Shown here: positions 13,720-39,437 of the stretch, one piece after another
Position numbering within the stretch: the first letter of the stretch is position 1
Layout: the number at the start of each line of letters is the position of its first letter
DNA from: Candidatus Spongiisociaceae bacterium
Lineage (GTDB): Bacteria; Actinomycetota; Acidimicrobiia; Spongiisociales; Spongiisociaceae
Direction: 5' to 3'
Length of the DNA: 64,000 bases
Assembly (NCBI GenBank): GCA_965219685.1
Contig: CBDCOH010000002.1
Coordinates: 3,557,064-3,621,063 of the forward strand
Program-made: the position numbers and the translations under genes
The notes under the pieces: generated by a model
Databases searched by the model: none
What the model saw: the letters and a program-made list of their open reading frames with translations, nothing else
What the model was told of the DNA's origin: nothing

Positions 13720-13761
13720 ACGCACCCACCAAACCTGGTACTTCGCTGCAAGGCAGGAGTC

Positions 13762-14769: not shown

Positions 14770-14869
14770 GGTGCTGGCCCGTTGAGCATCCACGGTAGGA
14801 GTTCGTCTTGCCGCTCGTGTAACACCCGCGGATAATTTCATCAGGGTGATTCCATCGGAGGGAGATGTG

Positions 14870-15103
14870 ATGCAGGCAGAGGCTACGGCTGTACGTTCCC
14901 GGAAGGAAGAGGTGTTCGCGGTCTTCGAGCAACGCGAGAAGGCACAGAAGCCTCCATTCGACGACGTGCTCGTGTTGTTCCACCACATGAGGGATCGCGG
15001 CTCCGACATCGACGACGTCGGGCTGGCTGTAGCGATCAGTCGCCTCGTACGCGAAGGAAGACTCCGCTATGCCCTCGACGGCATCCGGGTGATTCATCGG
15101 TGA
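14870..15103 (+). CDS. Hypothetical protein (77 aa)
   Basis: RBS ggagggag lies 6 nt before ATG 14870. No family was recognised. Confidence 0.4.
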   Translation: MQAEATAVRSRKEEVFAVFEQREKAQKPPFDDVLVLFHHMRDRGSDIDDVGLAVAISRLVREGRLRYALDGIRVIHR

Positions 15104-15351
15104 GCGGTCGGTAAGGCCGACTCCGCCGATCAAGTCTCGGTGATCCTCGAGAGAGCGTCCACGGGTATGGGAGTTCTTGACCGCTGAACGAACCAAGCTG
15201 ACTCCGAGGCATCCCGGGACGGTCTCGTCGAACCGGAGATTGCGTTCTGACCCGGATTCGCCTGGAACCCTTCCCGGCACGGTCGGTCGCCCCACAAGGT
15301 TGATCGGCCGTTATCCTGGGAGGTAGAACGCGAAAAACGTGGGAGGAACTG

Positions 15352-17445: not shown

Positions 17446-17466
17446 CCACTAACTAGCCGCCAGCCG

Positions 17467-19560: not shown

Positions 19561-19582
19561 CCATCCAAGAGTAGAGGGATCT

Positions 19583-19618
19583 GGTGGATTGTGGATGGTG
19601 GAATTAGTGGCTTGTGGC
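19583..19618 (+). repeat. Degenerate heptamer patch (GGTGGAT/TGTGGAT/GGCTTGT) in the 5' leader of the Mo-oxidoreductase gene
   Basis: ggtggattgtggatggtggaattagtggcttgtggc lies 23 nt upstream of the minus-strand start. It is C-rich on that gene's sense strand. Confidence 0.6.
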
Positions 19619-20031
19619 GAGCCCCGAGTCTTCATCGATCGGGGTTTGTAGGGGTTGACGGAGCGGGAGTTCTGGAATCCTGACCTGGCATTACGGCTAC
19701 CGATAGCCTTGTCCTGGAGACGGTGCGAGTTCACCCGCCGCGTGAAGGCGGCCTCTACGGAGTCCATAGGGTTCAACTGGCCTGATGTACATCGGTGTGC
19801 CGGGGACATGAAGATGCTTCTATGACGCTCCCATATTGTGGAAGTCGGTTGTCGGTATCTATCCACTATTGAGATCGGGTGGAGAGATGATGTTTGTGGC
19901 CCGGCGCGCTCGAGTGCTGGGATAAGGCTGTGTTGTGTCCGGAGGCTCCGGCGGCCCGCATGGTGGTGACGCCTGCACCACCCACGATGCACCGCCAGAG
20001 GCCCCGGATCCCGATCCGATCCCAGGTCGCC

Positions 20032-20064
20032 CCACCAGCCACAAACCACAAGTCACAAGCCACC
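20032..20064 (+). repeat. CCACAAG-type heptamer patch in the 5' leader of paralog 5
   Basis: ccaccagccacaaaccacaagtcacaagccacc ends 7 nt before ATG 20071. Confidence 0.6.
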
Positions 20065-20070
20065 GTTACT

Positions 20071-22173
20071 ATGTCTCCAGGCAAGCAGACGGAGGTAGTG
20101 CGGGTGTTGCAGGAGGCTAAAGGCCGTTGGCGGTGGATCGGGCCGATCCTCCTAGCGGTGGTCGGTTCCCTTCTGGCTGTTCCAGCGGTTCCCGTAGCCG
20201 CGCGGTCCGGGCATGCGGACCATCCCGCCCGGTATTCGGCCTGCGTGGGGGCCGCGACCAAGCCGTTCGGGTTCGATGACACGGAAGGCAACTTTGCAGC
20301 GGCGGCCATAGATTGCCTGGCGCACTACCGGATCACCAAGGGGACCTCGGCGACCTCATACAGCCCCGGCGAGGTGATACCACGGTGGCAGATGGCTCTC
20401 TTCCTCGCTCGGGCGACCGGCCCGACCGGCATCACGCTACCGCCTCCCGTCGCGCGGGGATACACCGACATCGCCCGGTTGAGTCCCGCTGCCCGCGATG
20501 CCATCCACCAGCTGGCGCAGTTGGGGATCATGCTCGGCACGTCCGCCACAACCTTCGACCCGTACGCGCCGGTGACCCGCGTGCAGATGGCGGTGCTGCT
20601 TGCCCGGTTCCTGGACGCCGCCCCTACGGGTCCGGGAGGAACGGACATCAAGGACGTGGAACCCGACGACAATGTCTTCCGTGATCTCAGCGGGGTGCCG
20701 TTCAGCACGTACCAGGCGATCCGCCGTCTCTACGAACTGGACGTCACCGAGGGCACATCGGCCAGCACCTTCTCGCCTGCCGCGCCGGTGAGCCGGGCCC
20801 AGATGGCCGCTTTCATCACCCGGATGCTGGCCCACACCAACGCCCGCCCGTCCGGCGTGTCCGTGCAGACTCCCGAGGAAGATGTATTCGCGAACTCTGA
20901 CGCCCTCGTGCTGGTCTCGGTGCGTGACCCCAATCACCAGCCGTTCTTCGAAGCGAGCGTGGACATCTTCATGGCCGCCGATCCCACCAAGGCCTTCGAC
21001 AAGGACGGCCGCTGCACGGAGAAAGCCCTGGCTGCGGCGGGTGCGCTGGCGTGTGTCATGGACAACTCCGACCCGGAGACCGATGCCGCGGGCAACGCGT
21101 CGGTCCCGGTGGAGGTCGGCGATGACGACTCCCTGCGTATATGGGCGTGGAGAGGGGAAGACGGCGCGGCTTTCGACGAGAATACCTCCGAGGCGGCGAC
21201 CGTCGACATCGAGCTTCTCAGCGACGCCACCGCCTTGGAGGTCACCGACGACCTCGCACCCACCGCCCGCAAACTCCGCTTCGGCGGCTCAGTGACGTTC
21301 ACGTTCCAGTTGATCGACAGGGACGGCGACCCGGTGTCGAAGCCGGGCGTCAGCTTCAGCATCAACGTGGCGGAGTCGAGGGACAACGGCCGCACCTTCG
21401 ACCGGAGCGTCATCACCAAGGAGACCGGTGTCGACGGCGCCGCCCAGGTGACCTTCCTCCACTCGGACCCCACCGCCCAGCCGGGTGACGTGGCCAGCCT
21501 CGACCTCGATGTCAGGATCGGCAACAACCTGGGCGTCGTGGACGCCACCACCATCGGGATGGTGGACGACGACGGCACCAACGACGATCCCCTGCTCGAC
21601 TGGGTCGACGAACGCGCCGAGCCCACTTCGCTCGTGCTGACGGTGCCCAGGGAATACCGGGTCGCCTCCTCGGAGGACACCGGCGCGGGCGGCGCCGTGA
21701 GGGCTACCCTCACCGACCAGTTCGGCGGACCGGTGGTTCGCGAGCAGATCTCCTTCAGGTCGAGCGATCCCATGGGGGTTCCCAGCGGGGTGCGGCGCGC
21801 CACCAACTCGAGCGGCGTGGCCACCCTCCACTACCTGCGGGACTCCGCGGCGGGCGGCGTCGAGAGGATCACCGGCCAGTACGAGCGGGTGGTGGCCACC
21901 GTCCGCCAGTTCTGGGCGGGCCGGGTGACCGGCGCCGCCACCGGCTCCGGTGAGGTGAGGGTCGTGAACACGGACGACAACACGGTGATCGTGGTGGCGG
22001 GCCGCGACGTCCGGCTGGTCGCGTACGACGCCAACGACCACCTCTACATCGGCACGGAGACGGTTCACATAGACGGATTCGAGGAAGCCCTGAGCGTCGG
22101 CGACACCCTCGCCTACGAGATCAGCAGCACGGCCGAGAACGCGATCAACACCTTCACGCTCACCGACAGTTGA
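20071..22173 (+). CDS. Secreted SLH-domain surface protein, paralog 5 (start set at ATG 20071)
   Basis: It begins MSPGKQTEVVRVLQEAKGRWRWIGPILLAVVGSLLAVPAVPVAA. It has three SLH-like modules, AHTNARPSGVS and VRATLTDQFGGPVVRE. Confidence 0.8.
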   Translation: MSPGKQTEVVRVLQEAKGRWRWIGPILLAVVGSLLAVPAVPVAARSGHADHPARYSACVGAATKPFGFDDTEGNFAAAAIDCLAHYRITKGTSATSYSPGEVIPRWQMALFLARATGPTGITLPPPVARGYTDIARLSPAARDAIHQLAQLGIMLGTSATTFDPYAPVTRVQMAVLLARFLDAAPTGPGGTDIKDVEPDDNVFRDLSGVPFSTYQAIRRLYELDVTEGTSASTFSPAAPVSRAQMAAFITRMLAHTNARPSGVSVQTPEEDVFANSDALVLVSVRDPNHQPFFEASVDIFMAADPTKAFDKDGRCTEKALAAAGALACVMDNSDPETDAAGNASVPVEVGDDDSLRIWAWRGEDGAAFDENTSEAATVDIELLSDATALEVTDDLAPTARKLRFGGSVTFTFQLIDRDGDPVSKPGVSFSINVAESRDNGRTFDRSVITKETGVDGAAQVTFLHSDPTAQPGDVASLDLDVRIGNNLGVVDATTIGMVDDDGTNDDPLLDWVDERAEPTSLVLTVPREYRVASSEDTGAGGAVRATLTDQFGGPVVREQISFRSSDPMGVPSGVRRATNSSGVATLHYLRDSAAGGVERITGQYERVVATVRQFWAGRVTGAATGSGEVRVVNTDDNTVIVVAGRDVRLVAYDANDHLYIGTETVHIDGFEEALSVGDTLAYEISSTAENAINTFTLTDS

Positions 22174-22459
22174 GTTCCTCGGCAAAGGGGTGGACAGTGG
22201 TCGGTGGTCGGCTCCCCAGGTACGAGCACGGTCGGCGCCGGGTCGTGACCCGCAGGGCGTACCCCACGCGCTCAGCGGCCATCGTCGGAGGCGCCGCCCG
22301 ATCGGATAACGGAGAGGGCCGGCTCTCGCAGCCCGAGTGAAGGAACTCACCCGAACCGGTGTTCCGGCTGATCCGGATAGATCGGGTTAGGACGACCTTT
22401 CCACTAGCCTTCACCGGTGGGACCGCCATGATCCGAGGGACCGGACATCCCGGCGGGGA

Positions 22460-24598
22460 TTGGCTCGAAGAAACCGCAAGAGGCCGGCACATGACAGGCA
22501 CATGACAGTTTTCTCGAATCGTACGGGTGCGATCCTGGCGACGACCATGGTCGCTTCCCTGCTCGTGCTGGCACCCGGACCGCTGAAGGCGGTCGACGGC
22601 AGGTCCGACAACGTGGCGGCCTACTCCGCCTGCGTGGGTCCTGCAACTGTATCGGCGGATTTCGCCGATACAGTTGATCACTTCGCCGAGAAGGCCATCG
22701 ACTGCCTCGCGTACTACGGGATAACGCTGGGCACCGCCGCGGGCCAGTTCTCCCCCGACCAGTTCATCACCCGCGCGCAGATGGCCCTATTCCTCGTCCG
22801 GGCGGCCGGTCCGGCGGGGGTGAGCCTGCCCACGCCGGCGAGCCGGGGGTTCTTGGACATCTTGGGCGAGGCGCAATTCGTCCGGGATGCGATCAACCAG
22901 ATCGCGGCGCTCGGAATCACGGCGGGCACGTCAGCCACCACATTCCACCCTGACGTCCACATGGACCGCCGGACGATGGCCCTCTTCCTCTACCGGTTCC
23001 TCCTGCTGACCCAGCAGGGACCGGGCGGGACCGGCGCGGCCCTGGTGACGCCCGACGACACATTGTTCGAAGATTTGGGCAACGAGGACGATGCGGTTGT
23101 CAACGCAGTCGGCGTGCTCTACGAGATGGGCGTGACCCACGGCAAGACGGCTACGACCTTCGCTCCTTCCGACCTGGTGACTCGGGCGCAGATGGCGCTG
23201 TTCATGACCCGGGCCCTGGCGCACTCCAACACCCGGCCGGCCCGCGTGACCATCCAGAGCCGGGCCGACGTCGTTCCCAGCGGGGACACACTCGAGGTGA
23301 GTATCTCCGTCAGGGACACCAGGTTCCGCCCGAGGTCAGGGTCGCTGGTCGACGTGTTCTCCACCCCTTCCCGAGACCCGTACGCCTCGTTCGGTCAGGA
23401 CGGGGACTGCCTCCGAAGGGTGGAGGTGGCCTTCGGAAGCCGAGTCTGCGTGATCGATCAATCGGACCGGCGCCTGGACCAGATGGGCAACCTGGTAGTC
23501 GTCCTCGAACCCACCGACAACCTGCTGCTATGGGCATGGACGGGTTCTTCGGGCGAGGAGTTCCGCACCAACGCCACCGAGTACGGTTCCATCCGGATCG
23601 AGGTGCTCAAGCCTGCCACGGCGGTGAGGGTCCGTGACGACATGAAACCTGCGGCCGCCATCCTGAAGTTGGGCGAAACCGTGGAGATGACGTTCGAACT
23701 GGTCGACGAAGACGGTCGCCCGGTCGCCGAGTCCGGGGTACGGATCCAGCTGGCCACGACCTACGAGACGAACGGCGTGATCGGCCGGACCAACATCAGG
23801 ACGCACCGGACCGACGGGGATGGGCGGGTGGTGGTTCCGCTCTCGGCGGCGGACCCCGACCTCACATCCGGTGGCGACTCGGTGAAGGTCGACATCGATG
23901 TGCTGGTGCAGGCGCTCGAGGTGGTGGATCGGAGCAGCCTGCGGGTGGTGGAGAACGATGACGACGACAGCACCGACACCCTGATCACCTGGTCCGAGGC
24001 GGCCCCGGTGGCCTGGACCCTCCGGTTGCGCCAAGCCTCCACGTACAACCAGCTGGACGATTCCATCCTCGGTCCGGTGAACGTGGTCCGGGCGACGCTC
24101 AGGGACCAGTACGGCGATCCGGTGGAGGCCGCCATGATCCAGTTCTCCTCGGATCAGCCCTTGGGCCTTGGTACGACCGGTGTGACCAGGACCGCAGGGG
24201 TCGACGGGGTGGCCACCCTGCGGTATATGTGGAACGGTTCCGGGTCGGCGTCCGAACTCATCTCCGCCGAGGCCACAGGCTTGGACGTCGAGGCTGTGTC
24301 CGTTCACCACTACTGGGCGGTTCTCCAGGCGGGAGGCAGGTCCGCCCTGGCGGTCCCCATCCTGGCGAGCGACATCTACAGGAACGTCATCCTCCACGAC
24401 GCCAGGTCGCCGCGGCTGCTCCGTTACGACGCCAACGACCGTTTCTCGATCCGGGACACCGTCGTCAGCATGACCGCCTTCGAGGAGGCCCTTACCAGCG
24501 GCGACTACAGCCGGATCACCTACACCAAGTACTTCGACGAGCCCGAAGATGTCAGCTTCTTCGACCTCACCAACACCAGGATTTTCGACGACGCCTAG
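22460..24598 (+). CDS. Secreted SLH-domain surface protein, paralog 6 (start TTG 22460 or ATG 22502)
   Basis: Signal peptide GAILATTMVASLLVLAPGPLKA. It has three SLH-like modules, AHSNTRPARVT and VRATLRDQYGDPVEAA. Confidence 0.8.
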   Translation: MARRNRKRPAHDRHMTVFSNRTGAILATTMVASLLVLAPGPLKAVDGRSDNVAAYSACVGPATVSADFADTVDHFAEKAIDCLAYYGITLGTAAGQFSPDQFITRAQMALFLVRAAGPAGVSLPTPASRGFLDILGEAQFVRDAINQIAALGITAGTSATTFHPDVHMDRRTMALFLYRFLLLTQQGPGGTGAALVTPDDTLFEDLGNEDDAVVNAVGVLYEMGVTHGKTATTFAPSDLVTRAQMALFMTRALAHSNTRPARVTIQSRADVVPSGDTLEVSISVRDTRFRPRSGSLVDVFSTPSRDPYASFGQDGDCLRRVEVAFGSRVCVIDQSDRRLDQMGNLVVVLEPTDNLLLWAWTGSSGEEFRTNATEYGSIRIEVLKPATAVRVRDDMKPAAAILKLGETVEMTFELVDEDGRPVAESGVRIQLATTYETNGVIGRTNIRTHRTDGDGRVVVPLSAADPDLTSGGDSVKVDIDVLVQALEVVDRSSLRVVENDDDDSTDTLITWSEAAPVAWTLRLRQASTYNQLDDSILGPVNVVRATLRDQYGDPVEAAMIQFSSDQPLGLGTTGVTRTAGVDGVATLRYMWNGSGSASELISAEATGLDVEAVSVHHYWAVLQAGGRSALAVPILASDIYRNVILHDARSPRLLRYDANDRFSIRDTVVSMTAFEEALTSGDYSRITYTKYFDEPEDVSFFDLTNTRIFDDA

Positions 24599-26540: not shown

Positions 26541-27182
26541 CTACCGCCCGAAGAACTTGTCGAACAGTTCAATCTGGCCGTCTCGAAGGCTGGCAACTTC
26601 CGTCTTGACGCCGGCGACGTCGTTTTGGAGACCGCCGATGTCCTCTCGAATGCTGGCGACCTCGGTTTTGACGCCGGCGACGTCGTTTTGGAGACCGCCG
26701 ATGTCCTCTCGAATGCTGGCGACCTCGGTTTTGACGCCGGCGACGTCGTTTTGGAGACCGCCGATGTCCTCTCGAATGCTGGCGACCTCGGTTTTGACGC
26801 CGGCGACGTCGTTTTGGAGACCGCCGATGTCCTCTCGAATGCTGGCGACCTCGGTTTTGACGCCGGCGACGTCGTTTTGGAGACCGCCGATGTCCTCTCG
26901 AATGCTGGCGACCTCGGTTTTGACGCCGGCGACGTCGTTTTGGAGACCGCCGATGTCCTCTCGAATGCTGGCGACCTCGGTTTTGACGCCGGCGACGTCG
27001 TTGCGGATGGTGGCCACGTCCTGTTGGAGGTCGGTGATGTCCTTGCGGATGGTTTGCTGCCCGGTCTCGATGTTGTCCAGCCGGTCGAGGATCTGTGTGA
27101 GAATGCCAGCTAGCGCCTCGAAGGCCGCGTCTGTCCTGGCATTGCCCGTTGTGGGGAACCGAACGACTGCGGATTGGGCCAT
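26541..27182 (-). CDS. Coiled-coil protein with 21-aa tandem repeats (DVAGVKTEVASIREDIGGLQN x6)
   Basis: ATG 27180-27182 is preceded by RBS aaggggga. The repeat period is 21 aa, which is 3 heptads. No TM segment or signal peptide was seen. No family was recognised. Confidence 0.65.
   Translation of the reverse strand: MAQSAVVRFPTTGNARTDAAFEALAGILTQILDRLDNIETGQQTIRKDITDLQQDVATIRNDVAGVKTEVASIREDIGGLQNDVAGVKTEVASIREDIGGLQNDVAGVKTEVASIREDIGGLQNDVAGVKTEVASIREDIGGLQNDVAGVKTEVASIREDIGGLQNDVAGVKTEVASIREDIGGLQNDVAGVKTEVASLRDGQIELFDKFFGR
26592..27000 (-). repeat. 63-bp tandem repeat, about 6.5 copies, five of them identical (26655-26969)
   Basis: The unit ggcgacctcggttttgacgccggcgacgtcgttttggagaccgccgatgtcctctcgaatgct restarts at 26655, 26718, 26781, 26844, 26907 and 26970. 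Confidence 0.95.
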
Positions 27183-27522: not shown

Positions 27523-28638
27523 CTACTCCAGCCTGTCGACCAATCTCTGGAACTTGCCGGCGGAGAAGGACACGGGAGTGTCCTCCACCCGGTTGCCGGT
27601 CTTGTCGATCAGCAGGGCCCGGGATGTGTACGGGCCGCCGTAATGTCTCCACACCGCGTTGGAGCCGTCCCAGAGGTTGGTGAAGGTCAGCCCGTAACGT
27701 CGAACGAAGCCCTCGCCGGAACTCCGGGGATTCCAATGATCCGGGTTGATACCCACCACTGTGACCTTGTCTGTGTTCTTGCGAGCGAACTGCTCGACCT
27801 CCGGAGCATGCCTCCGGCAAGTCGGTCACCATTCCGCCCAGAACCAGAACAGCACCCCCTTGTCGCCCGTGAACAGCGAGCGGAGGTTGACGGTCTCGCC
27901 GCTGGAGAGGTCGGTCAGGTCGACATCGGGGACGTCGTCGGAGATGGTGACCGGTTCGGGCTCGGTCGTCTGGTCGTCCTGTTTGAGCAGCGCCCGGTGC
28001 AGGAAGGTGGCCATCTCGGCTCGGGTGACCGAATCGTGGGGGCAGTAGCGGAGCGGGCCGGTCGCGCATCCGGTGGTGATCCCGGCTGTGGCCAGGGCGT
28101 CGATGTTCGGCGCGTGGGTGTTGCCTGCGGTGTCCGTGAAGCCGGCCGGGCCGGCGGGTTCGAGAGCGAAGGCACGGGTGAGGAAGGTGGCCATCTCGGC
28201 TCGGGTGACGGCCTGGTCGGGGCAGTAGCGGAGCGGGCCGGTGGCGCATCCTTTGGTGATCTCACGGTCGGCGAGTTCCTCCGCGTAGCGCGACCACCAC
28301 TCTGAGGCGTCCACGTCGTCGAAGCGGGAGGTCCCTCCGGCGGTGACGTCGCCGCCGAGGACCCGGATCAGCCATACGGCCATGACCCATCGCTCGATCT
28401 TCTCCTGCGGGCAGAATTCGCCTTCCCCGCACTCGGTGCCCTCGAACACGCCCGACTCGGCCAGGGCATTGATCGCCGGCTCGTGGAAGTCGCCCGCACC
28501 GACATCGGAGAACCCGTCCGCGCCCCCGGCCGGCGGGGAGGCCAGAAGCGACGCCAGCAGTACCACGACCAGCGCCAACGGGGCGGCCCGACGGCGCCCG
28601 GGCGATGCTGTGTGCTCACGGGTTGTCACGGCTGCCAC
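27523..28638 (-). CDS. Exported SLH-like x3 plus TlpA/redoxin-type thioredoxin-fold protein with in-frame TGA (candidate Sec) at the CxxC position: W-U-P-T-C
   Basis: ORFs 27826-28638 and 27523-27759 are in the same frame, with no other stop between them. TGA at 27826-28 reads ..VLFWFWAEW[TGA]PTCRRHAPEVEQFARKNTDKVTVVGINPD... Signal peptide LALVVVLLASLLASPPAGGA. Confidence 0.7.
27782..27796 (-). promoter_or_regulatory. Candidate SECIS-like hairpin CGAGC-AGUUC-GCUCG, 29 nt 3' of the UGA (gene A)
   Basis: The identical 15-mer occurs at the identical spacing in all three paralogs. An additional hairpin CCGGAG-GCAUG-CUCCGG lies 8-25 nt after the UGA in this gene. Confidence 0.4.
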
Positions 28639-28805
28639 CCCCCTGTCGGGTCGGGCCTCATGATAGTTCTCCGGATGGGTCCGGTGTCGGATACCACCCG
28701 GCGCCCGTGGACGGGATGCCGGCCAGCCGTGTCGACGAGGCCGGAGGATTCAGGACCGGGTCCGGGGCGATCCCCCACGTGCGCAGTCGGTCGTCACGAA
28801 CCGGA

Positions 28806-29915
28806 CTACTCCAACGCCGCCAGCAACCTGTCGATCAGGTCCGGGTCGAAGTACGAGTATTGAGGCGAGGGCACCGGGTTGCCCTCCCGGTCGACGAAGC
28901 GGAACCTCACCCGGTCGCCCTGCTTGCGCAGCAGCCGGAACTCGGACCAGGACCCGATCCCGTAGTGCGCTGTCGTTGCCCAGGGCTGATCGTCGCGAAG
29001 GATCGGAAAGGTCAAGCCGTGGGTGGCCACGAAGTTCGTGATCGCGTTAGGAGAATCCTCGGAGTTGATCCCTATGACCTTGACCCTATGGGTGTTGTCA
29101 CGAGCGAACTGCTCGACCGCGGCCGCTTCCCGCCGGCATCTCGGTCAGCCAGGCGAGAAGAACCAGAGCAGGAGGGGCTTGTCGCCGGTGACGAACGAGC
29201 GGAGGCTCACGGTGTCTCCCGTGGAGACGTCGGTCAGGTCTGTGTCGGGGACATCGTCGGAGATGGCGACCGGTTCGGGTCCGGTCATCCGGTCGTTCTG
29301 TTTGAGCAGGGCCTGGTGGAGAAAGGTGGCCATCTGGGCTCGGGTGACCGCCTCGTTAGGGCAGTAGCGGAGGGGGTCGGTCGCGCATTCGCGGGTGATC
29401 CCGGCTGCGGCTAGGGCGTCGATGTCCGGCGCGTGGTGGTCGCCTTCGGTGTCCGTGAAGCCAGCCGGGCTGGCGGCTTCGAGGGCGAAGGCCCGGGTGA
29501 GGAAGCTGCCCATCTGGGCTCGGGTGACGTCCTGGTCGGGGCAGTAGCGGAGGGGGCCGGTGTCGCATCCTTTGGTGATCTCGCGGTCGGCGAGTTCCTC
29601 CGCGTGGCGCGACCACCATTCGGAGGCGTCCACGTCGGCGAAGCGGGAGGTCCCTCCGGCGGTGACGTCGCCGCCGAGGACTCGGATCAGCCATACGGCC
29701 ATGACCCATCGCTCGATCGGGTCCTGGGGGCAGAATTCGCCTTCCCCGCACTCGGTGCCCTCGAACACGCCCGACTCGGCCAGGGCGTTAATCGCCGGTT
29801 CATGGATGCCGCCCGCACCGACGTCGGAGAACCCGTCCGCGGCCCCGGCGGGGAGCGGACCCAGCACCGAGGCCACCAACACCACGGCTACCAGGACGGT
29901 CGGCCAACCCGTCAT
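28806..29915 (-). CDS. Exported SLH-like x3 plus thioredoxin-fold protein with in-frame TGA at the CxxC position: G-U-P-R-C
   Basis: ORFs 29145-29915 and 28806-29030 are in the same frame. TGA at 29145-47 reads ..LLLWFFSPG[TGA]PRCRREAAAVEQFARDNTHRVKVIGINSE..GLTFPILRDD... It is a close paralog of 27523-28638. Confidence 0.7.
29101..29115 (-). promoter_or_regulatory. Candidate SECIS-like hairpin (gene B)
   Basis: The same CGAGCAGUUCGCUCG lies 29 nt after the UGA. Confidence 0.4.
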
Positions 29916-29992
29916 GCGGCGGAGGCGTCAACCTATTGGGGCGGCGAATACCGGACCAGGTCCGATAGACCTGGTCGGCAGTGGACGCGGCG

Positions 29993-31027
29993 TCATACCA
30001 ACTCGTCCAATAGGTTCTCGACGCGGGTCCGGTCGTAGGGTTCGGTCCTCTCCATCAGCCGGTTGCCGAACGGATCCAGGAGCAGGAAGTCGGACGTGGC
30101 GTCCATCTCGTAGTGTTCCCATGCCTCACGGGAGTCGCTCCAGAGCACAGTGAAGGTGGTGCCCTTGTCAGCTACGAACTCCTGGGCTATCTCCAGGGTT
30201 CCTATGCCGCCGACGCCTATGACGATGAGGCGGTGGGAGTTGTCCCGAGCGAACTGCTCGATGGCCGGAGCCTCTTCGTTGCACGTCTCTCAGAACGGCG
30301 ACCAGAACCAGAACATGAGCGGCTTCTCGCCCTTGACCACCGACCGCAGGCTCACCAACTCGCCGGTAGCCGTGTCGAACATCCGGACGTCGGGCACGTC
30401 GTCGGAGATCTCGATCGTGAGCGGCGCCTCGGTGGTGGTCGGCGTGGGTGCCTGGGTGGTGGTAGGCGCCTGGGTGGTGGTGGTCGGTGGCTCGGTGGTG
30501 GTGGTCGGCGCTTGGGTGGTCGTGGTGGGCGCGTCGGTCGTGCTGGTCGTCGGCGCCTGGGTGGTGGATGTCGCCGGTGGTTCCTCGACGGTCGTGGAAG
30601 TCACGCCGGTCCCGGCCGTGTCGACGGTGGTGGAGGTGACTGCGGCGACCGTCGTGGCTGCGGCGGCCGTGGTGGTGGTGCTGTCCGGGACGGCCGATGT
30701 CGTCGTGGCGGCCCGGGCCGCGGTGGTGCTGGTTTCCGGCGCCGTCCCGTCCTCGGAGGGGTCGCGGTCAGCCACGCTGGTCCCGGGGTCGGGCATGGTG
30801 GTCCCGGTCGTGGTGGAGGCGCCGGCATCCACGGCGTCGGCTGCCACCGTGGTGGTGGTTCCGCTCCCGCAGGCGGCGACCATCAGGGCCGCTGCCACCA
30901 CCCCGGCGTACCAGCCGGGCAACGGACGGGTCGGCCGTCGCTCCCGTGGCCGACGAGACCGCCTCGGACCCGCGCCCCGGTCCGGATCGACCGTGGCGCT
31001 CCCGCCTTCGTCGGCGTGCTGGCCCAT
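29993..31027 (-). CDS. Lipoprotein-type thioredoxin-fold protein with a Thr/Ala/Pro-rich linker and in-frame TGA at the CxxC position: F-U-E-T-C
   Basis: Start ATG at 31025-27. The lipobox-like segment is AALMVAACGSG. TGA at 30290-92 reads ..KPLMFWFWSPF[TGA]ETCNEEAPAIEQFARDNSHRLIVIGVGG..TFTVLWSDS..FLLLDPFGNRL..DELV*. The frame is open to the TGA at 29993-95. Confidence 0.65.
30246..30260 (-). promoter_or_regulatory. Candidate SECIS-like hairpin (gene C)
   Basis: The same CGAGCAGUUCGCUCG lies 29 nt after the UGA. Confidence 0.4.
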
Positions 31028-31277
31028 GGAACAACGGCTCGGGCTGCGACGAACCGCGCGGGTGTCGCCTGTCACCCACCTTCTCGCTGTCACCGGCTAA
31101 GCATAGAGGCTGGTGAGAGTTGCCGATCGGGCAGTGCAGGGCCACCCGAGGGCCGCAGACGCCGGCTGCGCCGCCGCCGCCGAGGCTCGACCGCCCGCGG
31201 AGGGGTCGCGCAAGGGCAACCCGGCCGGATGGCGGTCGTATCCTCCCGCTACGATCCGGTTGGCCGATCAGGTACCG

Positions 31278-33806
31278 GTGTTGAGAGAAATCCTCAGAAG
31301 GGAGGGCGGCGCCCTCCGAGCCTCGTGGCTTGTCCTCGCGGGCGTCTCCGCAGCGCTGCTGCTGCTTGCCACGCCCGCGCGGGCGGAGTCGCCCTGCGGC
31401 TCCCCGACGGTGATTCCCGACGGCTCGGAAGCTCTGCGGTCCGACTGCGAGGTGCTGTGGGAGTTCTACACCGGTCTCGAAGACCCGGGCGTACTGGACG
31501 ATGCCGACAACCCCAACGCCTGGCTACCTACCATCCCGTTCGTCGAGTGGCAGGGACTCGAGGTCCGGAACGACCGGGTCGTAATCCTCTCCCTGTCCGG
31601 AGCCGAGTTGAAGGGACCCGTCTCCCCCGGCCTCGGTGGCCTGGCCGGCCTGCGGGCCCTCTACCTGAACTCCAACCAACTGACCGGTCCGATCCCCCCC
31701 GAACTGGGTGACCTCTCGGAGCTCGTCCTGCTGCAACTGGACGACAACGGGTTCACGGGACCGATACCCCCGGAGATAGGGCAACTGGCGGAGCTGGTCT
31801 ACCTTCTCCTGAACAGCAATGACCTCACGGGACCGATCCCGCCACAGTTAGGCGACCCCACCAAGCTGAAGTGGCTGTACCTGTTCGGCAACGAGCTGAG
31901 CGGGCCGATACCCGAGGAGCTGTCGCGCCTGGACGACCTCGAGAAACTCGCCCTGGGCGACAACCAGCTCACCGGGTCCATCCCGCCGGAGCTGGGGAGG
32001 CTCGTGAACCTGACCCTGCTGGCGCTCAACGACAACCAACTCAGCGGGTCCATCCCGCCGGAACTGGAGTCCCTGACCAAGCTGGAACAGCTGTATCTCC
32101 GCGGCAACCGGCTGACCGGTCCCATCCCTCCCGGCCTCGATCAGGTGCTCGAGCCCGCCGACAAGGACGAGATCGATCCCTTCTGGGCGGATCCGCTGGG
32201 TCTCATCGCCCACGCGGCCTACTACCGCCAGTACAGCCTCGGCTCGACTGTCTGGCACGTGTGGTTCTGCGATGTGCCGCTGGGCGACGCGCCCGTCGTG
32301 GCGAACGAGGTGGTGAGGCGCCTGAACCGGGAGGTGGTCTCCTACTTCGAGTGGGTGTCGGGCGACCGGTACCGGCCGAGCTTCCAAGCGGAGGGTTGGC
32401 TGGCCGGTGACAGCCGGTCGGACTGTGAGGCCGCGCTGGAGGCCGAGGACCCCGAGATGCCCATGCTCCTGGTCGAGAACAGCCCCGCCAACGACGGCTA
32501 CGCGGCGGGCCGGGGACTGGTGGTGCTAGGAGGCGGCACGGTCGTCCCGACACCGGGGTTCCGCCAGGCGCGCCTGTCGACCGTGGTCCACGAGATGGGC
32601 CATGCGTTGGGCTTCCCGCACTCCTTCGGCGGCAGGATCAGATGGTCGCCCGAGGGCCAGCTCAGCGGGGTCTACGAGTACGACAACCCGATGGACATGA
32701 TGAGCGGCGACCTCGCCCTGGGGCTCGACACCGGGACGATCGCCGCCAACCGGTACGCGGCGGGCTGGATCGAACCGGACGAGGTGGCGGTCCACGGGGC
32801 GGGAACGACAGCCGTCTACGAGCTCCGCCCGCCTGGTGCGGGCGGCACCCAGATGCTGGTCCTGCCGGGGAGGAGGCAGGGCGTGTTCACGGTGCTGGGA
32901 GCCAGGGTCGCCCTGGGTCATGATGTGGCCATCCCGCGAGCGGGGGTCGAGGCCTACCGCATCGACCAGAGGGAAGCGGCGTGCACCTACCCCTGGCGGG
33001 GCGCTTGCTCGGGAACCGAGCGGCGTACCCAGCCCTACCCGCCCGCCGAGCCGGGAGCAGGTTACGGCGACGATCTGGGCAGCCGCGGCCGGCGCCGCCT
33101 GGTCGATCACGTGTACCGCCCGGGCGACGTGTTCGAGATCGGCACGACCACGATCGAGGTGGTCGAGAAGGTCGGCAACAACTACCGGGTGCGGGTGGCG
33201 GACTCCTCTGCGCCGCCGCCCCCGCCGGAGCCCGCCCCCGGTCCGTCGTTCGACGGGCGCTTCTCCGACGACGACGGCAGCGTCCACGAAGCCGACATCG
33301 AAACGATCGCCGCGCTGGGCATCACCGTCGGCTGCAACCCGCCCGACAACAACCGTTACTGCCCCGGCGACGTCGTGACCCGGGCGCAGATGATGGCCTT
33401 CCTGGCCCGCGCCCTCGGCGAGGAGGGCGACCCCGAGGTGACTACCGGCCGGTTCTCCGACGTGCCCGACAACGCCTGGTACCTGCCGTACCTGGAGCGG
33501 CTGGCCGACCTCGGGGTGGTCGAACCCTACGAGGACGGCACCTTCCGCCCTGACGAGCCCATCACCCGGATCGACATGGCCGTGCTCCTAATGCGAGCAT
33601 TCCCGGGCATCGACGAGGTGACCGAACCCGAGGGAGTCTTCGTCGATGTGCCCGCAGACGCTCCGCACGCGGGGGCGGTCGAGGGCATCCTGGCGGCGGG
33701 GGTCACCAAAGGATGCTCCGAGGACCCACTCTCCTACTGTCCCGGCGGGGCCGTGCCCCGCGACCAGATGGCGTCCTTCCTGGCGCGAGCCCTGAAAGCC
33801 GGCTAG
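31278..33806 (+). CDS. Secreted plant-type LRR plus metzincin-like zinc protease plus 3 C-terminal SLH-like modules
   Basis: Probable GTG 31278 or TTG 31281 start before signal peptide LRASWLVLAGVSAALLLLATPARA. There are about 9 LRRs of the form LxxLxLxxNxLTGPIPPELGxL. The zinc motif is VVHEMGHALGFPHSFG (HExxHxxGxxH). C-terminal modules carry GC..P..YCP..VTRAQMMAFLARAL. Confidence 0.75.
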   Translation: MLREILRREGGALRASWLVLAGVSAALLLLATPARAESPCGSPTVIPDGSEALRSDCEVLWEFYTGLEDPGVLDDADNPNAWLPTIPFVEWQGLEVRNDRVVILSLSGAELKGPVSPGLGGLAGLRALYLNSNQLTGPIPPELGDLSELVLLQLDDNGFTGPIPPEIGQLAELVYLLLNSNDLTGPIPPQLGDPTKLKWLYLFGNELSGPIPEELSRLDDLEKLALGDNQLTGSIPPELGRLVNLTLLALNDNQLSGSIPPELESLTKLEQLYLRGNRLTGPIPPGLDQVLEPADKDEIDPFWADPLGLIAHAAYYRQYSLGSTVWHVWFCDVPLGDAPVVANEVVRRLNREVVSYFEWVSGDRYRPSFQAEGWLAGDSRSDCEAALEAEDPEMPMLLVENSPANDGYAAGRGLVVLGGGTVVPTPGFRQARLSTVVHEMGHALGFPHSFGGRIRWSPEGQLSGVYEYDNPMDMMSGDLALGLDTGTIAANRYAAGWIEPDEVAVHGAGTTAVYELRPPGAGGTQMLVLPGRRQGVFTVLGARVALGHDVAIPRAGVEAYRIDQREAACTYPWRGACSGTERRTQPYPPAEPGAGYGDDLGSRGRRRLVDHVYRPGDVFEIGTTTIEVVEKVGNNYRVRVADSSAPPPPPEPAPGPSFDGRFSDDDGSVHEADIETIAALGITVGCNPPDNNRYCPGDVVTRAQMMAFLARALGEEGDPEVTTGRFSDVPDNAWYLPYLERLADLGVVEPYEDGTFRPDEPITRIDMAVLLMRAFPGIDEVTEPEGVFVDVPADAPHAGAVEGILAAGVTKGCSEDPLSYCPGGAVPRDQMASFLARALKAG

Positions 33807-34000: not shown

Positions 34001-35557
34001 TCAGCAGAAGGGGAGGTCCATCAAGCTGAAGTCGTTGCTGGTGTCCATCAGTCCCTGCGGTATGCATCCCTGAAACTGGTTCCCGCCGTAGAACCGCACG
34101 TAGTTGATCTCGGGAAGGTCACCCAGGGAGGCGGGGATGCGACCCTGCAACCTGTTGTTGGCCACATCCAGGAGGCGAAGTTTGGTGAGATTCCCCAGCT
34201 CGTCGGGAATCTCACCCGTGAGTCGGTTTTCGTTTAGCCACAGGTTGGCGAGGCGCGACAGTCTTCCAAGCTCCGGGGGGATGGGGCCTGTCAGTTGGTT
34301 CCTGGAAAGGATCAGCACCTCGAATTCCTCCAGGTCGCCCAACTCCGAAGGTATGGGACCGCTCAATCGGTTCCCCCCAAGGGACATCCACCAGAGCGAC
34401 TTCACCGTCCCGAGTTCGGCCGGGATGGCCCCTGTCAGCACGTTGTCGCGCAGGGACAGGACACCCAGGTTGGCGAACTCGCCGAATTCAGGTGGGATGC
34501 CTCCACTCAGCGCGTTGCCTCCCAGGGACAGCTGTTCCAGGCGGGTGAGTCCGGTCAACTCAACCGGGATGGGTCCGTCGAGCAGGTTGTCGGCGAGGAT
34601 GAGGGTCCTGAGTTGCTGGAGAGAGCCCAATTCGGAGGGCACCGACCCGGTGAGCCCATTCTCGCTCAGGTCAAGGGTCTCGAGCGCGGAGAGATCGGCC
34701 AGGATCGGCGGGAAGGGTCCCTCCAGCCCGTTGCCCTTCAGTTCCAGCTTCTTGACACGGTCGTCATCGTCGGTGGTGACACCGCCCCAAGCTTCCAGTT
34801 GGCCCCCTGTCAACCAGTTCTTCCTGCTGGTCCAGTTGTTGCCACTCGTCGTGTTGTAGAGGACCGCGAGGATGGCCCGGTCCGAGGTGCGGATGGCTCG
34901 GTGCAGGAACGTCGCCATCTCGGCGCGGGCCACGGGTCTGTCCGGGCAGTACTTCAGAGGGTCGGTGCTGCAGCCCGCGGTGATCCCGGCCGCGGCCAGC
35001 GCGTCGATGGCGGCTTCGTGGGTGTCGCCTCCGGTGTCGACGAACCCGGCGGAGGGCGCTTCTTCTATCTTCAGGGTGCGCACTAGGAACGTCGCCATCT
35101 CTCCCCTCGTCACCGCCCGATCGGGGCAGTAGCTCGGAGGGTCCGTCTTGCATCCGATCGTGATCTCGAGCCGGGCGATGCGCTCGGCGTAGGGTGACCA
35201 CCACTCATCGGCGGAGACATCGGCGAATCGGGAGGTGTCGGTGTTGTAAGGCTTGTAGCCGAACGCCCGCACCAGCCAGACCGCCATCACCCAGCGGTCG
35301 ACCGGATCCCAGGGGCAGAACATGTCCGTGTCGCACTCGGTGTCCTCGAAGTAGCCCCACTCGGCGAGGGTGTCGACCGCGGCCTGGAGTCCACCCGCCT
35401 CGGCCGAATCCGTGAAGAAGCCTTCCTCCTCGGTCGCCGCCGCGTCCGGGGCGAGCACCGTGCCGACCAGCGCCGCGACCAGGAGGAGGATCGTGCCGAC
35501 GAGGAGGCGGTGCGGGACTGATGAAGACTGCCGGAGATCGGTCTGCGGGATGCTCAT
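34001..35557 (-). CDS. Secreted protein with 3 N-terminal SLH-like modules and a C-terminal plant-type LRR domain
   Basis: Start ATG at 35555-57 with RBS gagg 6 nt upstream. Signal/TM segment LLVGTILLLVAALVGTVLAPDAAA. SLH-like modules include ..TIGCKTDPPSYCPDRAVTRGEMATFLVR. There are about 11 LRRs, for example LSLGGNALSGGIPPEFGEFANL. Confidence 0.75.
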   Translation of the reverse strand: MSIPQTDLRQSSSVPHRLLVGTILLLVAALVGTVLAPDAAATEEEGFFTDSAEAGGLQAAVDTLAEWGYFEDTECDTDMFCPWDPVDRWVMAVWLVRAFGYKPYNTDTSRFADVSADEWWSPYAERIARLEITIGCKTDPPSYCPDRAVTRGEMATFLVRTLKIEEAPSAGFVDTGGDTHEAAIDALAAAGITAGCSTDPLKYCPDRPVARAEMATFLHRAIRTSDRAILAVLYNTTSGNNWTSRKNWLTGGQLEAWGGVTTDDDDRVKKLELKGNGLEGPFPPILADLSALETLDLSENGLTGSVPSELGSLQQLRTLILADNLLDGPIPVELTGLTRLEQLSLGGNALSGGIPPEFGEFANLGVLSLRDNVLTGAIPAELGTVKSLWWMSLGGNRLSGPIPSELGDLEEFEVLILSRNQLTGPIPPELGRLSRLANLWLNENRLTGEIPDELGNLTKLRLLDVANNRLQGRIPASLGDLPEINYVRFYGGNQFQGCIPQGLMDTSNDFSLMDLPFC

Positions 35558-35696
35558 GGAAGGCCTCAACTGTGGTGCTCGGGTGCTTCCGGACGCTACC
35601 ACTTGTCTCCAGGATCGGGCATTCCCGCAATGGTGGGGATGGCTTGCTCGGGACGCCGACGTACGTTCGGACCCGGACGGGTATAGGGTTCCCATC

Positions 35697-37100
35697 ATGC
35701 GACCGGTACTCACCTCCGAGCAGTCCCGCCGCCAGGACGCTCTCGCCGATGTGGACCCGCGGACGCTGCTGGACCGGGCCGGGCTGGCGGTGGCCCTGCA
35801 GGCGGCTGCACTCGGGGCCGGCTACGGATGCCGGGTGGCGGTGCTCGCCGGTCCCGGTAACAACGGCGGGGACGGATACGTGGCCGCCCGTCACCTCTAC
35901 GGGCGGGGAGCGGCCGTCGACATCTATCCGCTGACCGCGCCGAGGAGCGGTCCGGCACGATGGGCACACCGGCTGGCCTCTAGGGAAGGAGTGGCCGTCC
36001 GGGACTGGGACGACCCTCGACCGGCGGATCTGGTGATCGACGCCCTGTTCGGGGCTGGGTTCCGGGGAACGTTGCCCGACCTCTCCCCGTGGCGGGAGGC
36101 CCCGGCATGCATGGCCGTGGACGTCCCGTCGGGACTGGACGCCTCTACCGGCGAGGCCGTGGACGGCGCCCTGGTAGCCGACGCGACCGTGACCTTCCAC
36201 GGGTACCGGGTGGGCCACCTCGTGGGTCAGGGTCCGGACCTCTGCGGGGAGGTGGTGGTGGCGGACATCTGGCTGCCCGACGTGGAGCCCGAGATGTGGC
36301 TGTGCGAGGAGGCGGACGCCCCCCTCCCGGCGCGGAGCCGCACCGGCCACAAGTGGTCGGCCGGGTCGGTCCTGGTGATCGGCGGCTCCGACGGCCTGGA
36401 CGGGGCGGCCACCCTCACCGCCCGGGCGGCGCTGCGGGCCGGGGCGGGGGCGGTGATGATCGCCTGCCCGCCCACCGTCGAGGAGAAGGTGCGGGCGCCC
36501 GAGATCATGACCAGGGCGATCGGCGAGAGCCGCTCGTTCTCGGCCGCCGACCTTCCCCAGGTGCTGGCCCTGGCGGACCGTTTCGACCTGGTGATCATCG
36601 GGCCCGGCCTCGGATCGGCCGCCGACCTGGGAGGCTTCGTCAGCGGGTTCTTGGAGGGCTGCGGCGGTCCGGTGGTGGCCGACGCCGACGCCCTCAACGC
36701 CTTGGACGGGCCTCGGGACCTGGTCAGGGAAGGGGAGACCGTGATCACCCCCCACACCGGAGAGTTCTCCCGCCTGACCGGCCGGGCCGCCTCCTACCAG
36801 GAAGCCGCCTCGCTCTCGGCCTCCACGGGGGTGACCGTCCTGCTGAAGGGCGCTCCCACCTTCGTCATGGGAGCGGCGCGCTGGGTGGTGAACTCCGGAG
36901 GTCCCGAACTCTCGACCATCGGGACCGGGGACGTGCTGGCGGGGATGATCGGCGCCTTCTGGGCCTCGGGGCTGGACGGTCCGGCGGCGGCCCGGTCAGG
37001 GGCGTACTGGCACGGCCGGGCCGGGGCCGACCTGCAACAGACCCGCACGGTCACCGCGGACGTGCTCGCCGATCACATCGCCGAGACCACTCGCCGGTGA
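35697..37100 (+). CDS. nnr: Bifunctional NAD(P)H-hydrate repair enzyme (epimerase/dehydratase, YjeF family)
   Basis: It begins MRPVLTSEQSRRQD..VAVLAGPGNNGGDGYVAARHL. The C-terminal carbohydrate-kinase-like half reads HKWSAGSVLVIGGS..GAA..LLKGAPT..GTGDVLAGMIGA. Confidence 0.8.
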   Translation: MRPVLTSEQSRRQDALADVDPRTLLDRAGLAVALQAAALGAGYGCRVAVLAGPGNNGGDGYVAARHLYGRGAAVDIYPLTAPRSGPARWAHRLASREGVAVRDWDDPRPADLVIDALFGAGFRGTLPDLSPWREAPACMAVDVPSGLDASTGEAVDGALVADATVTFHGYRVGHLVGQGPDLCGEVVVADIWLPDVEPEMWLCEEADAPLPARSRTGHKWSAGSVLVIGGSDGLDGAATLTARAALRAGAGAVMIACPPTVEEKVRAPEIMTRAIGESRSFSAADLPQVLALADRFDLVIIGPGLGSAADLGGFVSGFLEGCGGPVVADADALNALDGPRDLVREGETVITPHTGEFSRLTGRAASYQEAASLSASTGVTVLLKGAPTFVMGAARWVVNSGGPELSTIGTGDVLAGMIGAFWASGLDGPAAARSGAYWHGRAGADLQQTRTVTADVLADHIAETTRR

Positions 37101-38637: not shown

Positions 38638-38931
38638 TCAGGCGATGCGGGTCATCCGGCTGATGACGATTCCCTCGATGTGGTCGGCAATGGCGGCCAG
38701 CCCGTCGGCGATGTGAGGTTCGTCCAGGTGGAGGTCGAGGTCGGCTTCGCTCCGCCACAGGGCGACGAAGTAGAAGAGGCCCGGGTCGTCGTCGACCACG
38801 TGCAACCGGTAGTCGAGGCATCCCTCCTCCTCACGGGTGGGAGCGACCATGGCGACGAGAGCCCTCCGGACCGTGTCCTCCGATCCGGCCACGGCCCGTA
38901 CACGGGCCACGGCTGTGAGGGTTTCTGCCAT
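38638..38931 (-). CDS. Antibiotic-biosynthesis-monooxygenase (ABM, YgiN-like) family protein
   Basis: MAETLTAVARVRAVAGSEDTVRRALVAMVAPTREEEGCLDYRLHVVDDDPGLFYFVALWRSEADLDLHL. It is a tandem paralog of 39010-39303. Confidence 0.75.
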   Translation of the reverse strand: MAETLTAVARVRAVAGSEDTVRRALVAMVAPTREEEGCLDYRLHVVDDDPGLFYFVALWRSEADLDLHLDEPHIADGLAAIADHIEGIVISRMTRIA

Positions 38932-39009
38932 GGAGGCCACTGTACCGGCTCCTTCCACCGCCAGGAGTGCGGTAAGGGGCCGGTCGGGGGGCCGTTCTAC
39001 GGATCCCCG

Positions 39010-39303
39010 TCAGGCGATGCGGGTCATCCGCTTGATGTCGATCTGCTCGATCTTGCCCTCCACGGCATCGATGGACTCCCGCACGTGGGCGGAGGCCAGG
39101 TGGATGTCCAGGTCCTCCCCGCTCCGCCACTGCTCGACGAAGTAGAAGAGCCCCGGGTCGTCGTCGACGGCGTGCAGGTTGTACTCGATGCAGCCCTCCT
39201 CCTCGCGAGTGGGGGGGACGATGGACAGGAGGGCCTCACGGACAGCGTCCTCCGAGCCGGACGCGGCCCGGACCCAGGCAACAACAGTCAGTACGTCGGT
39301 CAT
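39010..39303 (-). CDS. ABM (YgiN-like) family protein, tandem paralog
   Basis: MTDVLTVVAWVRAASGSEDAVREALLSIVPPTREEEGCIEYNLHAVDDDPGLFYFVEQWRSGEDLDIHL. Confidence 0.75.
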   Translation of the reverse strand: MTDVLTVVAWVRAASGSEDAVREALLSIVPPTREEEGCIEYNLHAVDDDPGLFYFVEQWRSGEDLDIHLASAHVRESIDAVEGKIEQIDIKRMTRIA

Positions 39304-39437
39304 GGACACGACTGTAGTAGCCGCAGCCGGTCAGTGTCCGCCCAGGGCAGGGCGTAGGCGGACCCGCGCTCTCCGTATCCCCGTGTTGGGTCGGCAGAGC
39401 CGCCTTGGTAGGTTGGTCCGGTCGGAGAGGGAGGTCG

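Follow-up and report, generated by a model that had tools for sequence, protein, structure and literature searches.

How should an in-frame TGA codon be read when it falls at the same catalytic position in three consecutive genes? The question is raised by a 64,000-nucleotide stretch of DNA (contig CBDCOH010000002.1 of a Candidatus Spongiisociaceae bacterium; the whole stretch is referred to here as the window), in which three thioredoxin-fold genes, A, B and C, lie next to each other on the minus strand. A preliminary description of this DNA had proposed that the TGA in each gene stands for selenocysteine (Sec, written U in protein motifs) at the first Cys of a CxxC motif and that the products are exported selenoproteins. 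In this study, we find that the three codons reflect site-specific recoding and that genes A, B and C are very probably genuine Sec-encoding genes. This is supported by the conservation of the TGA, by selection acting downstream of it, by a conserved hairpin and by pairs of Sec- and Cys-forms, with the Sec machinery itself seen for the bacterial class only.

The genes follow one another in the order C (31093 to 29993), B (29915 to 28806) and A (28638 to 27523), and gene A is 372 codons long when the Sec codon and the stop are counted in. Each frame-1 translation contains one internal stop, which lies between ..VLFWFWAEW and PTCRRHAPEVEQFAR.. in gene A, between ..LLLWFFSPG and PRCRREAAAVEQFAR.. 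in gene B, and between ..LMFWFWSPF and ETCNEEAPAIEQFAR.. in gene C. The raw sequence agrees with these translations and no other stop precedes the terminal ones, as had been claimed. In its contexts, FWFWAEW-TGA-PTC (A), LWFFSPG-TGA-PRC (B) and FWFWSPF-TGA-ETC (C), the TGA takes the place of the first Cys of CxxC; the resolving Cys is kept in all three genes, as read both in the translations and in the alignment with MPT53 described below. When Pfam was searched with Cys replacing the stop, Redoxin and AhpC-TSA matches crossed the TGA in every case (E values of 1e-15 to 3e-9). The scores for A, B and C, respectively, were 58, 46.5 and 37.1 bits for Redoxin (PF08534; cut-off 26.6) and 55.9, 51.8 and 36.2 bits for AhpC-TSA (PF00578; cut-off 26), both models representing the TlpA/ResA/DsbE-like redoxins (cd02966). 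About 70% of the redoxin domain is encoded 3' of the TGA, and the GC content at third codon positions past it stays coding-like (0.81 in gene A and 0.86 in gene B).

The regions upstream of the redoxin domain were also as described before, with three SLH-like modules in A and B and a lipobox (VAAC) plus a Thr/Ala/Pro linker in C. The SLH model (PF00395; cut-off 20.8) matched gene A with 56.6 bits (E value 2e-15) and gene B with 53.2 bits (E value 3e-14); each has three repeats of about 52 residues, with a Cys pair in every one. In gene C, neither the Pfam SLH model nor inspection for such modules revealed any. The N-termini of gene A (RRR plus LALVVVLLASLLA..AGGA) and gene B (VLVAVVLVASVLG..AGAA) are signal-peptide-like by eye. 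The true start of gene C is probably further downstream than the start of its longest open reading frame (ORF). A scan of the locus for promoters and terminators yielded nothing informative.

One genome per GTDB species was scanned with peptide patterns from upstream of the site (ISDDVPD.. and GDKPLLLWF), which gave 39 loci in 30 assemblies, nearly all labelled Acidimicrobiia. Many of these loci come from sponges or corals, either under the names Candidatus Spongiisociaceae and Spongiisocius or in bins from Aplysina, Rhopaloeides and Ircinia-type sponges and from Porites. Together, the window and 41 related loci (L001-L041) hold a family of 62 genes, and the first CxxC position is TGA in all 62 of them; TGC, TGT, TAA and TAG were each seen in none. 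This conservation excludes chance, in line with the earlier argument that three independent nonsense mutations at one catalytic codon would be unlikely. Beyond the TGA the frame remains open for 94-135 codons in 62 of 62 genes, most commonly for 97-100. The median pairwise ratio of nonsynonymous to synonymous substitution rates (dN/dS) downstream of the TGA was 0.31 for the A-type, 0.30 for the C-type and 0.41 for the APH-type genes, as compared with 0.27, 0.20 and 0.46, respectively, for the 45 codons upstream. The peptide past the TGA, which had been thought to look selected, is under purifying selection of the same kind as the upstream part.

Cys-pair SLH modules occur in 25 of the 62 genes, and the others have Thr/Pro/Ala-rich linkers, often together with a lipobox. 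The tandem triplication that the preliminary description singled out is real, but it is confined to few genomes (the C-B-A triple is present in the window, L002 and L014); a C-type gene directly upstream of an A-type gene is the commoner arrangement, found in at least 12 genomes. In L002, a long-read contig, the B-type orthologue (10001-11130) runs for 135 codons past the TGA and ends in an unrelated C-terminal tail, ..RRRPDREVAGGV.., which points to a frameshift error or a mutation close to the 3' end of the gene.

A protein search with the gene A domain returned 10 homologues (P0001-P0010), all of which either end at ...FWAEW or ...WFLSPF or start just downstream. Their source name is absent or simply "hypothetical protein", and their sole precomputed Pfam match is SLH. 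Because all 10 are cut at the TGA or begun after it, this predicted active-site selenoprotein family, which spans 30 or more Acidimicrobiia species, escapes current annotation and its redoxin domain is missed.

The best matches among solved structures were MPT53/DsbE of M. tuberculosis (1LU4; E value 1.4e-13), DsbF (3IOS; 1.5e-12) and ResA (5e-11). In all three alignments the first Cys of WCPxC stands opposite the U of W-U-PTC; for example, FWFWAEW-U-PTC of gene A is aligned to LWFWTPW-C-PFC of MPT53. An exhaustive search with the post-TGA segment recovered further cut-off fragments as well as full-length relatives in the Cys form (P0136 and P0142-P0144). P0136 has the same signal and three SLH modules with the motif W-C-PDC; in P0142-P0144, which are of the lipoprotein or linker type, the motif is APH-C-xxC. 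The column that is TGA throughout the family is thus Cys in its distant relatives (MPT53/DsbE, DsbF, P0136 and P0142-P0144). By these alignments, the products of A, B and C would be Sec versions of the actinobacterial DsbE (MPT53)/DsbF/ResA-TlpA group of extracytoplasmic thiol-disulfide oxidoreductases.

Both forms were also seen side by side. On the Logan contig SRR26713616 (L173), a Sec-form A-type gene (95-1210; W-U-PVC) is immediately followed by the Cys-form P0136 (1428-2531), a paralogue with the same architecture of three SLH modules, W-C-PDC, and without the hairpin described below. This is a natural Sec/Cys pair within one genome, and pairing of predicted Sec-forms with Cys-forms is a classical signature of selenoprotein families.

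In the alignment of the three paralogues, a 16-nt stretch, TCGAGCAGTTCGCTCG, is invariant about 30 nt past the TGA. From 56 distinct family sequences, RNAalifold gave a single consensus structure at this place, the hairpin (U)CGAGC-AGUUC-GCUCG(A). With the consensus YGAGC-RGUUY-GCUCR, it lies inside the coding sequence, 34 nt from the UGA, and the same bases encode (V/I)EQFAR. The five core pairs are present in 56 of 56 sequences. Columns 39 and 53 pair as C-G in 52, U-A in 3 and U-G in 1, and the three U-A cases are compensatory, a synonymous GTC to GTT change occurring together with an Arg to Gln codon change. One G-C pair has changed to G-U, and a sixth pair is U-A in 28 sequences and U-G in 18. 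Synonymous sites within the stem are frozen: the Ala codon is GCT in 58/58 genes (GCT makes up 9.8% of the Ala codons in the rest of these genes), the Glu codon is GAG in 59/59 (63% background), and for Val only GTC and GTT are used, GTG being absent (37% background). Variation is nevertheless seen at the two loop positions where it costs the peptide little (A/G and C/U). In the window, the hairpin motif occurs three times, versus 0.18 expected by chance. Among the Cys-forms, P0142 retains the peptide LEQFAR, encoded by CTG GAG CAG TTC GCC CGA, with two of the five pairs lost, and P0136 has HMAKFAER at the site and no hairpin.

Passages of PMC13188914 quote the published model of the bacterial selenocysteine insertion sequence (SECIS): an apical loop of 3-9 nt, an upper stem of 4-16 bp, a spacing of 16-37 nt from the UGA, a G in the first two loop positions that is mostly followed by G or U, and a free energy of -7.5 kcal/mol or lower. 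The stem-loop found after each TGA has a loop of 5 nt (AGUUC) with G-U at positions 2-3, a stem of 5-6 bp and a spacing of 34 nt, all within these ranges; its energy is borderline, as detailed below. We infer that this conserved hairpin is a SECIS element, which would recruit SelB with Sec-tRNA(Sec).

Other structures near the TGA were considered and rejected. A hairpin right after the UGA (columns 18-34) is strong in A and absent from C, with 72% of cells paired; its 14-nt spacing is under the range of the model, and its CCGG/CCGG pairing is due to Arg and Pro codons. A long lower stem in the gene A fold is not kept in orthologues. As an additional observation, a (G/C)UCA element 62-66 nt downstream (27762-27766, 29081-29085 and 30226-30230, minus strand) complements the UGA and its next base, and it is also present in related loci. 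The pairs are U-A in 53/59, G-C in 45/59 and A-U in 59/59; the fourth pair is C-G in 30 (the P...V subfamilies) and G-C in 21 (the E...L subfamily), and the exceptions inside subfamilies are uncompensated. This pairing might represent a closing helix with the UGA as part of it, in which case the codon is possibly decoded while itself in a long-range helix. Just as well, it might only follow from two amino-acid differences that separate the subfamilies.

The Sec trait is established for the class Acidimicrobiia and for sponge symbionts, and by extension the family-bearing genomes would possess it as well. SelA of locus L153, which came from the metagenome scan given below, is of the Acidimicrobiia type: its best 120 relatives are at least 68% identical and all match Pfam SelA, and several bear the names Acidimicrobiia, Acidimicrobiales or Acidimicrobiaceae bacterium. 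A selA gene directly followed by selB is present on six distinct Acidimicrobiia contigs (L164-L171; the operon is at 10001-12976 in L164), one of them 3.83 Mb long. Five of the six (L164-L169) show the order metallo-beta-lactamase (MBL)-fold hydrolase, usually NUDIX, FxsA, selA, selB, WhiB, NfeD, two ArsA-like ATPases and STAS; L170 retains FxsA-selA-selB alone, and in L171 the upstream gene instead codes for a penicillin-binding protein. Two of the contigs, L164 and L165, were scanned for a tRNA-Sec next to the operon, and neither showed one. With E. coli SelA as the database query, the best 120 matches were all from Enterobacteria. Metagenomes scanned with a high-GC back-translation of the pyridoxal phosphate (PLP)-site motif of SelA, SGDKLLGGPQAG, gave 120 loci, none with the selenoprotein family or the Cys-pair SLH motif; tetranucleotide similarity and tblastx both left the taxonomic placement of these loci without a usable guide. 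In published work, COGs for SelA and SelB co-occur in most Aplysina symbiont bins and not in free-living relatives, and the Acidimicrobiia bin76 has both (Table S4; Slaby et al. 2017, PMC5649159). A 2026 preprint reports selA, selB, selC and selD in all 84 complete genomes of Actinomarina, which belongs to another order of the same class.

Several results weigh against genes A, B and C being selenoprotein genes. Neither ARAGORN nor Rfam found a tRNA-Sec in the window or in the 41 related loci, Pfam found no SelA, SelB or SelD in 30 ORFs of the window, and tblastn of the E. coli proteins against the DNA of the Acidimicrobiia loci gave no true match (the sole match, in L019, proved to be TypA/BipA rather than SelB). 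The selA-selB contigs and the family-bearing assemblies do not overlap at all, so that a link within the same genome failed. Of the two sponge Acidimicrobiia bins, one, bin134 (GC 64.3%, about 90% complete), is without a SelA or SelB COG match (PMC5649159). As for the hairpin, taken alone it folds at -6.6 (A), -6.8 (B) and -7.6 (C) kcal/mol, with the cut-off being -7.5; the 60-nt context folds at -21 to -25 kcal/mol, and these folds are not conserved. Its spacing of 34 nt is close to the upper end of the range, and it is near-invariant, so the covariation comes from few events.

What other readings could account for the TGA codons? If translation truly terminated at them, each gene would yield a truncated N-terminal anchor (SLH or linker only), and the downstream part would be a separate small gene or an untranslated remnant, as in a pseudogene or split gene. 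All homologues are annotated in this way by public gene callers, and, as in bacterial Sec decoding generally, some stopping at the UGA probably accompanies Sec insertion. However, the break would fall inside one globular domain, at its active site. All 62 genes stay open in the same frame past the TGA with dN/dS of about 0.3, the first downstream ORF starts at least 20 codons past it so that its product would be without CxxC, and three parallel nonsense mutations kept across 30 species are not credible. We therefore regard true termination as very unlikely. Read-through without SelB is a somewhat more serious alternative, although still an improbable one. Here a near-cognate tRNA (Trp or Cys) or a suppressor would produce a WxxC or CxxC protein and the hairpin would only stimulate read-through. 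It would accommodate the failure to find Sec machinery in the window and in the locus flanks of family-bearing genomes, the sponge bin without SelA and SelB COG matches, and the shortness and modest stability of the hairpin alone. It would not readily explain why the site is that of the nucleophilic Cys of CxxC, where Sec/Cys pairs mark selenoproteins and where Trp would kill the active site, or why TGA is kept 62 times out of 62 when Cys is one change away (TGC or TGT). Moreover, Cys-form paralogues coexist with the Sec-forms, the hairpin with G-U in its loop fits the SelB-type SECIS model, and selA-selB is common in the class.

Two further explanations have next to no probability in our estimation. 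Genome-wide reassignment of UGA to Trp or Gly occurs in some Eggerthellaceae, Mollicutes and Gracilibacteria, and UGA-to-Trp has lately been reported in one actinobacterial family (PMC13462651). This possibility is refuted by stop-codon usage. TGA is the commonest terminator both in the window, where it ends 24 of 42 crude gene calls, and in the family genes (TGA 34, TAG 20 and TAA 8 among the 62 true terminators). The TGA at 7149-7151, which had been cited as an example of a normal stop, is indeed a genuine terminator. In addition, the genome has a GC content of about 66%, and a scan for in-frame TGAs with coding-like sequence on both sides gave only the family genes and one tandem pair of other genes (see below). 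Assembly or base-calling errors at three sites are refuted as well: Illumina and long-read assemblies made independently of each other, for many samples and species, all show the same TGA. Taken together, the conserved TGA, the frame that stays open past it and the use of TGA as the commonest true terminator in the window and in the family genes show site-specific recoding; codon reassignment, pseudogenes and sequencing error do not account for the in-frame codons.

If genes A, B and C do encode selenoproteins, the following sequence of events may be proposed. The UGA that occupies the nucleophilic position of CxxC would be decoded as Sec in all three mRNAs. SelB carrying Sec-tRNA(Sec) would bind the CGAGC-AGUUC-GCUCG hairpin located 34 nt downstream, leading to read-through and a full-length protein of about 365-370 residues. 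The full-length proteins would be exported via their N-terminal signal peptides, A and B would be held on the wall polymer through their three SLH-like modules, and a lipid anchor together with a long, extended Thr/Pro-rich linker would keep C at the membrane. The U-x-x-C centre would then carry out thiol-disulfide exchange, as in the Cys relatives DsbE, DsbF and ResA. The sequences themselves show the TGA and its conservation, selection on the protein past it, the conserved hairpin, the domains and the export and anchor signals; Sec insertion by SelB, the localisation and the redox role are inferred, and the enzymes might work as oxidases, isomerases or reductases.

It is tempting to speculate that the substrates are neighbouring SLH surface proteins with Cys-pair modules and that the enzymes serve in their oxidative folding or repair. 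A role in surface-protein folding or repair is reasonable because the window is dominated by SLH proteins and adjoining leucine-rich repeat (LRR) proteins have Cys-pair modules. A wider proposal, which we hold to be somewhat less likely than not, is that these are the first SLH wall-tethered and lipid-anchored extracellular selenoenzymes of a monoderm, making up a selenium-dependent surface redox system of sponge and coral symbionts, with a minimal, distal SECIS that also fixes the EQFAR peptide. Such a system might fold or repair the co-encoded Cys-pair SLH proteins, or it might shield the surface from host oxidants.

Positions of the features of genes A, B and C and of the surface-protein island are collected in Table 1.

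Table 1. Features of the selenoprotein candidate locus and of the surface-protein island (positions in the window)
Feature	Position	Strand	Remarks
Gene A	27523-28638	minus	Putative signal peptide, three SLH-like modules, DsbE/TlpA-like redoxin domain; W-U-PTC active site
Gene A, three SLH-like wall-binding modules	27988-28512	minus	One Cys pair per module (C..x..C-P)
Gene A, Redoxin/AhpC-TSA domain	27592-27945	minus	Across the TGA
Gene A, in-frame TGA (predicted Sec codon)	27826-27828	minus	Residue 271; raw sequence
Gene A, candidate SECIS apical hairpin	27782-27796	minus	CGAGC-AGUUC-GCUCG; encodes part of VEQFAR
Gene B	28806-29915	minus	Putative signal peptide, three SLH-like modules, redoxin domain; G-U-PRC active site
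Gene B, three SLH-like modules	29307-29831	minus	With Cys pairs
Gene B, Redoxin/AhpC-TSA domain	28953-29264	minus	Across the TGA
Gene B, in-frame TGA (predicted Sec codon)	29145-29147	minus	Residue 257; raw sequence
Gene B, candidate SECIS apical hairpin	29101-29115	minus	
Gene C	29993-31093	minus	Longest ORF; lipoprotein-type signal, Thr/Ala/Pro-rich linker, redoxin domain; F-U-ETC active site
Gene C, lipobox	30866-30880	minus	V-A-A-C-G; read directly from the sequence
Gene C, Thr/Ala/Pro-rich linker	30428-30859	minus	Degenerate 21-bp repeats; about 145 residues
Gene C, Redoxin/AhpC-TSA domain	30065-30406	minus	Across the TGA
Gene C, in-frame TGA (predicted Sec codon)	30290-30292	minus	Raw sequence
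Gene C, candidate SECIS apical hairpin	30246-30260	minus	
Island paralogues	4797-7151, 7378-9495, 9627-11807, 15352-17445, 19894-22173, 22460-24598	plus	

Several neighbouring genes deserve mention. The large surface-protein island on the plus strand (4797-24598), upstream of the candidate selenoprotein genes, consists of six paralogues of about 700-785 residues each, with a signal peptide and N-terminal SLH modules in 6/6 and Big_1/invasin-like Ig domains in 5/6. Among these SLH genes, an 860-residue ORF on the minus strand (17467-20049) has a C-terminal molybdopterin oxidoreductase domain of the sulfite-oxidase/MsrP type. The two LRR proteins adjoining the locus, at 31113-33806 (plus) and 34001-35713 (minus), contain the same unusual SLH-like Cys-pair modules as A and B, C-x(6-8)-[YF]-C-P...VTRAQMA, and the UxxC enzymes may have them as substrates or partners. 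Gene A is followed directly downstream by a coiled-coil-like ORF of 213 residues (26541-27182, minus). Within it, a near-perfect 63-bp tandem repeat (26581-27002; 6.7 copies, 98% matches) encodes in each copy a 21-residue unit such as GVKTEVASIREDIGGLQNDVA, with Pfam matches to low-complexity coiled-coil only. The fourth in-frame TGA returned by the scan for coding-flanked TGAs (39010-39012) was rejected as a candidate. It separates two tandem antibiotic biosynthesis monooxygenase-like (ABM) genes in the same frame (38638-39330, minus), both of which end in ..RMTRIA followed by a stop; this is an ordinary tandem duplication that mimics a recoding candidate, and the pair recurs in L002.

The significance of the family lies in several directions. 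Enrichment of SelA and SelB in sponge symbionts has been reported without known clients, and the family would provide concrete and abundant ones in Acidimicrobiia, with up to three paralogues per locus. It also offers a clean natural setting with Sec and Cys paralogues as direct neighbours, together with a very small, near-invariant SECIS candidate, and it raises the question of how selenoproteins function in the oxidising extracytoplasmic space.

How do these proteins compare with known systems? As had been suggested, genes A, B and C belong to an already established class of predicted selenoproteins and introduce no new principle. Passages of published surveys describe predicted thioredoxin-fold UxxC selenoproteins, "thiol-disulfide isomerase-like" and "Redoxin family", since 2005, and a "Redoxin family protein" (PF08534, UxxC) and a "UGC-containing TlpA family" from the Global Ocean Sampling (GOS) and later surveys. 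As far as those passages go, the published redoxin-like UxxC proteins share with ours a TlpA/Redoxin thioredoxin fold, Sec as the first residue of UxxC and a marine microbial source; both were found through Sec/Cys pairing, and both are known without biochemistry. The likeness to the published exemplars MGB1650493.1 and HEU0032618.1 is one of description in those passages. By keyword, SLH anchors, the lipoprotein/linker form and a C-(B)-A tandem were all absent from the passages of papers on UxxC selenoproteins. The same holds for a family limited to Acidimicrobiia, many of them living in sponges or corals, for 100% Sec over 30 species, for a near-invariant distal EQFAR hairpin and for Sec/Cys neighbour genes. 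A search for literature under the name Spongiisocius found none. None of the NCBIfam selenoprotein models (e.g., NF041054, ResA-like WAxxUGC) covers A-C: the best, WAxxUGC_long, scored 21 bits against a cut-off of 300, and all remaining NCBIfam matches were also below their cut-offs.

Compared with the fdhF-type SECIS of E. coli and the bSECISearch model, the candidate element is alike in being an intragenic stem-loop past the UGA, with G then U in a small apical loop, an upper stem of at least 4 bp and a spacing inside 16-37 nt. It differs in that its stem is very short (5-6 bp) and, at 34 nt, almost as distant from the UGA as that range allows, and in that the stretch between the UGA and the hairpin forms only the poorly conserved second hairpin mentioned above. 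MPT53 (1LU4), DsbF (3IOS) and Bacillus ResA use Cys in place of Sec, are without SLH modules or a Thr/Pro linker, and have only moderate identity to A-C over about 80-90 residues. They share with them the motif context FWFW-x-x-W-[C/U]-P-x-C and, as extracytoplasmic oxidoreductases from Actinobacteria and Gram-positive bacteria, are either secreted or lipid-anchored.

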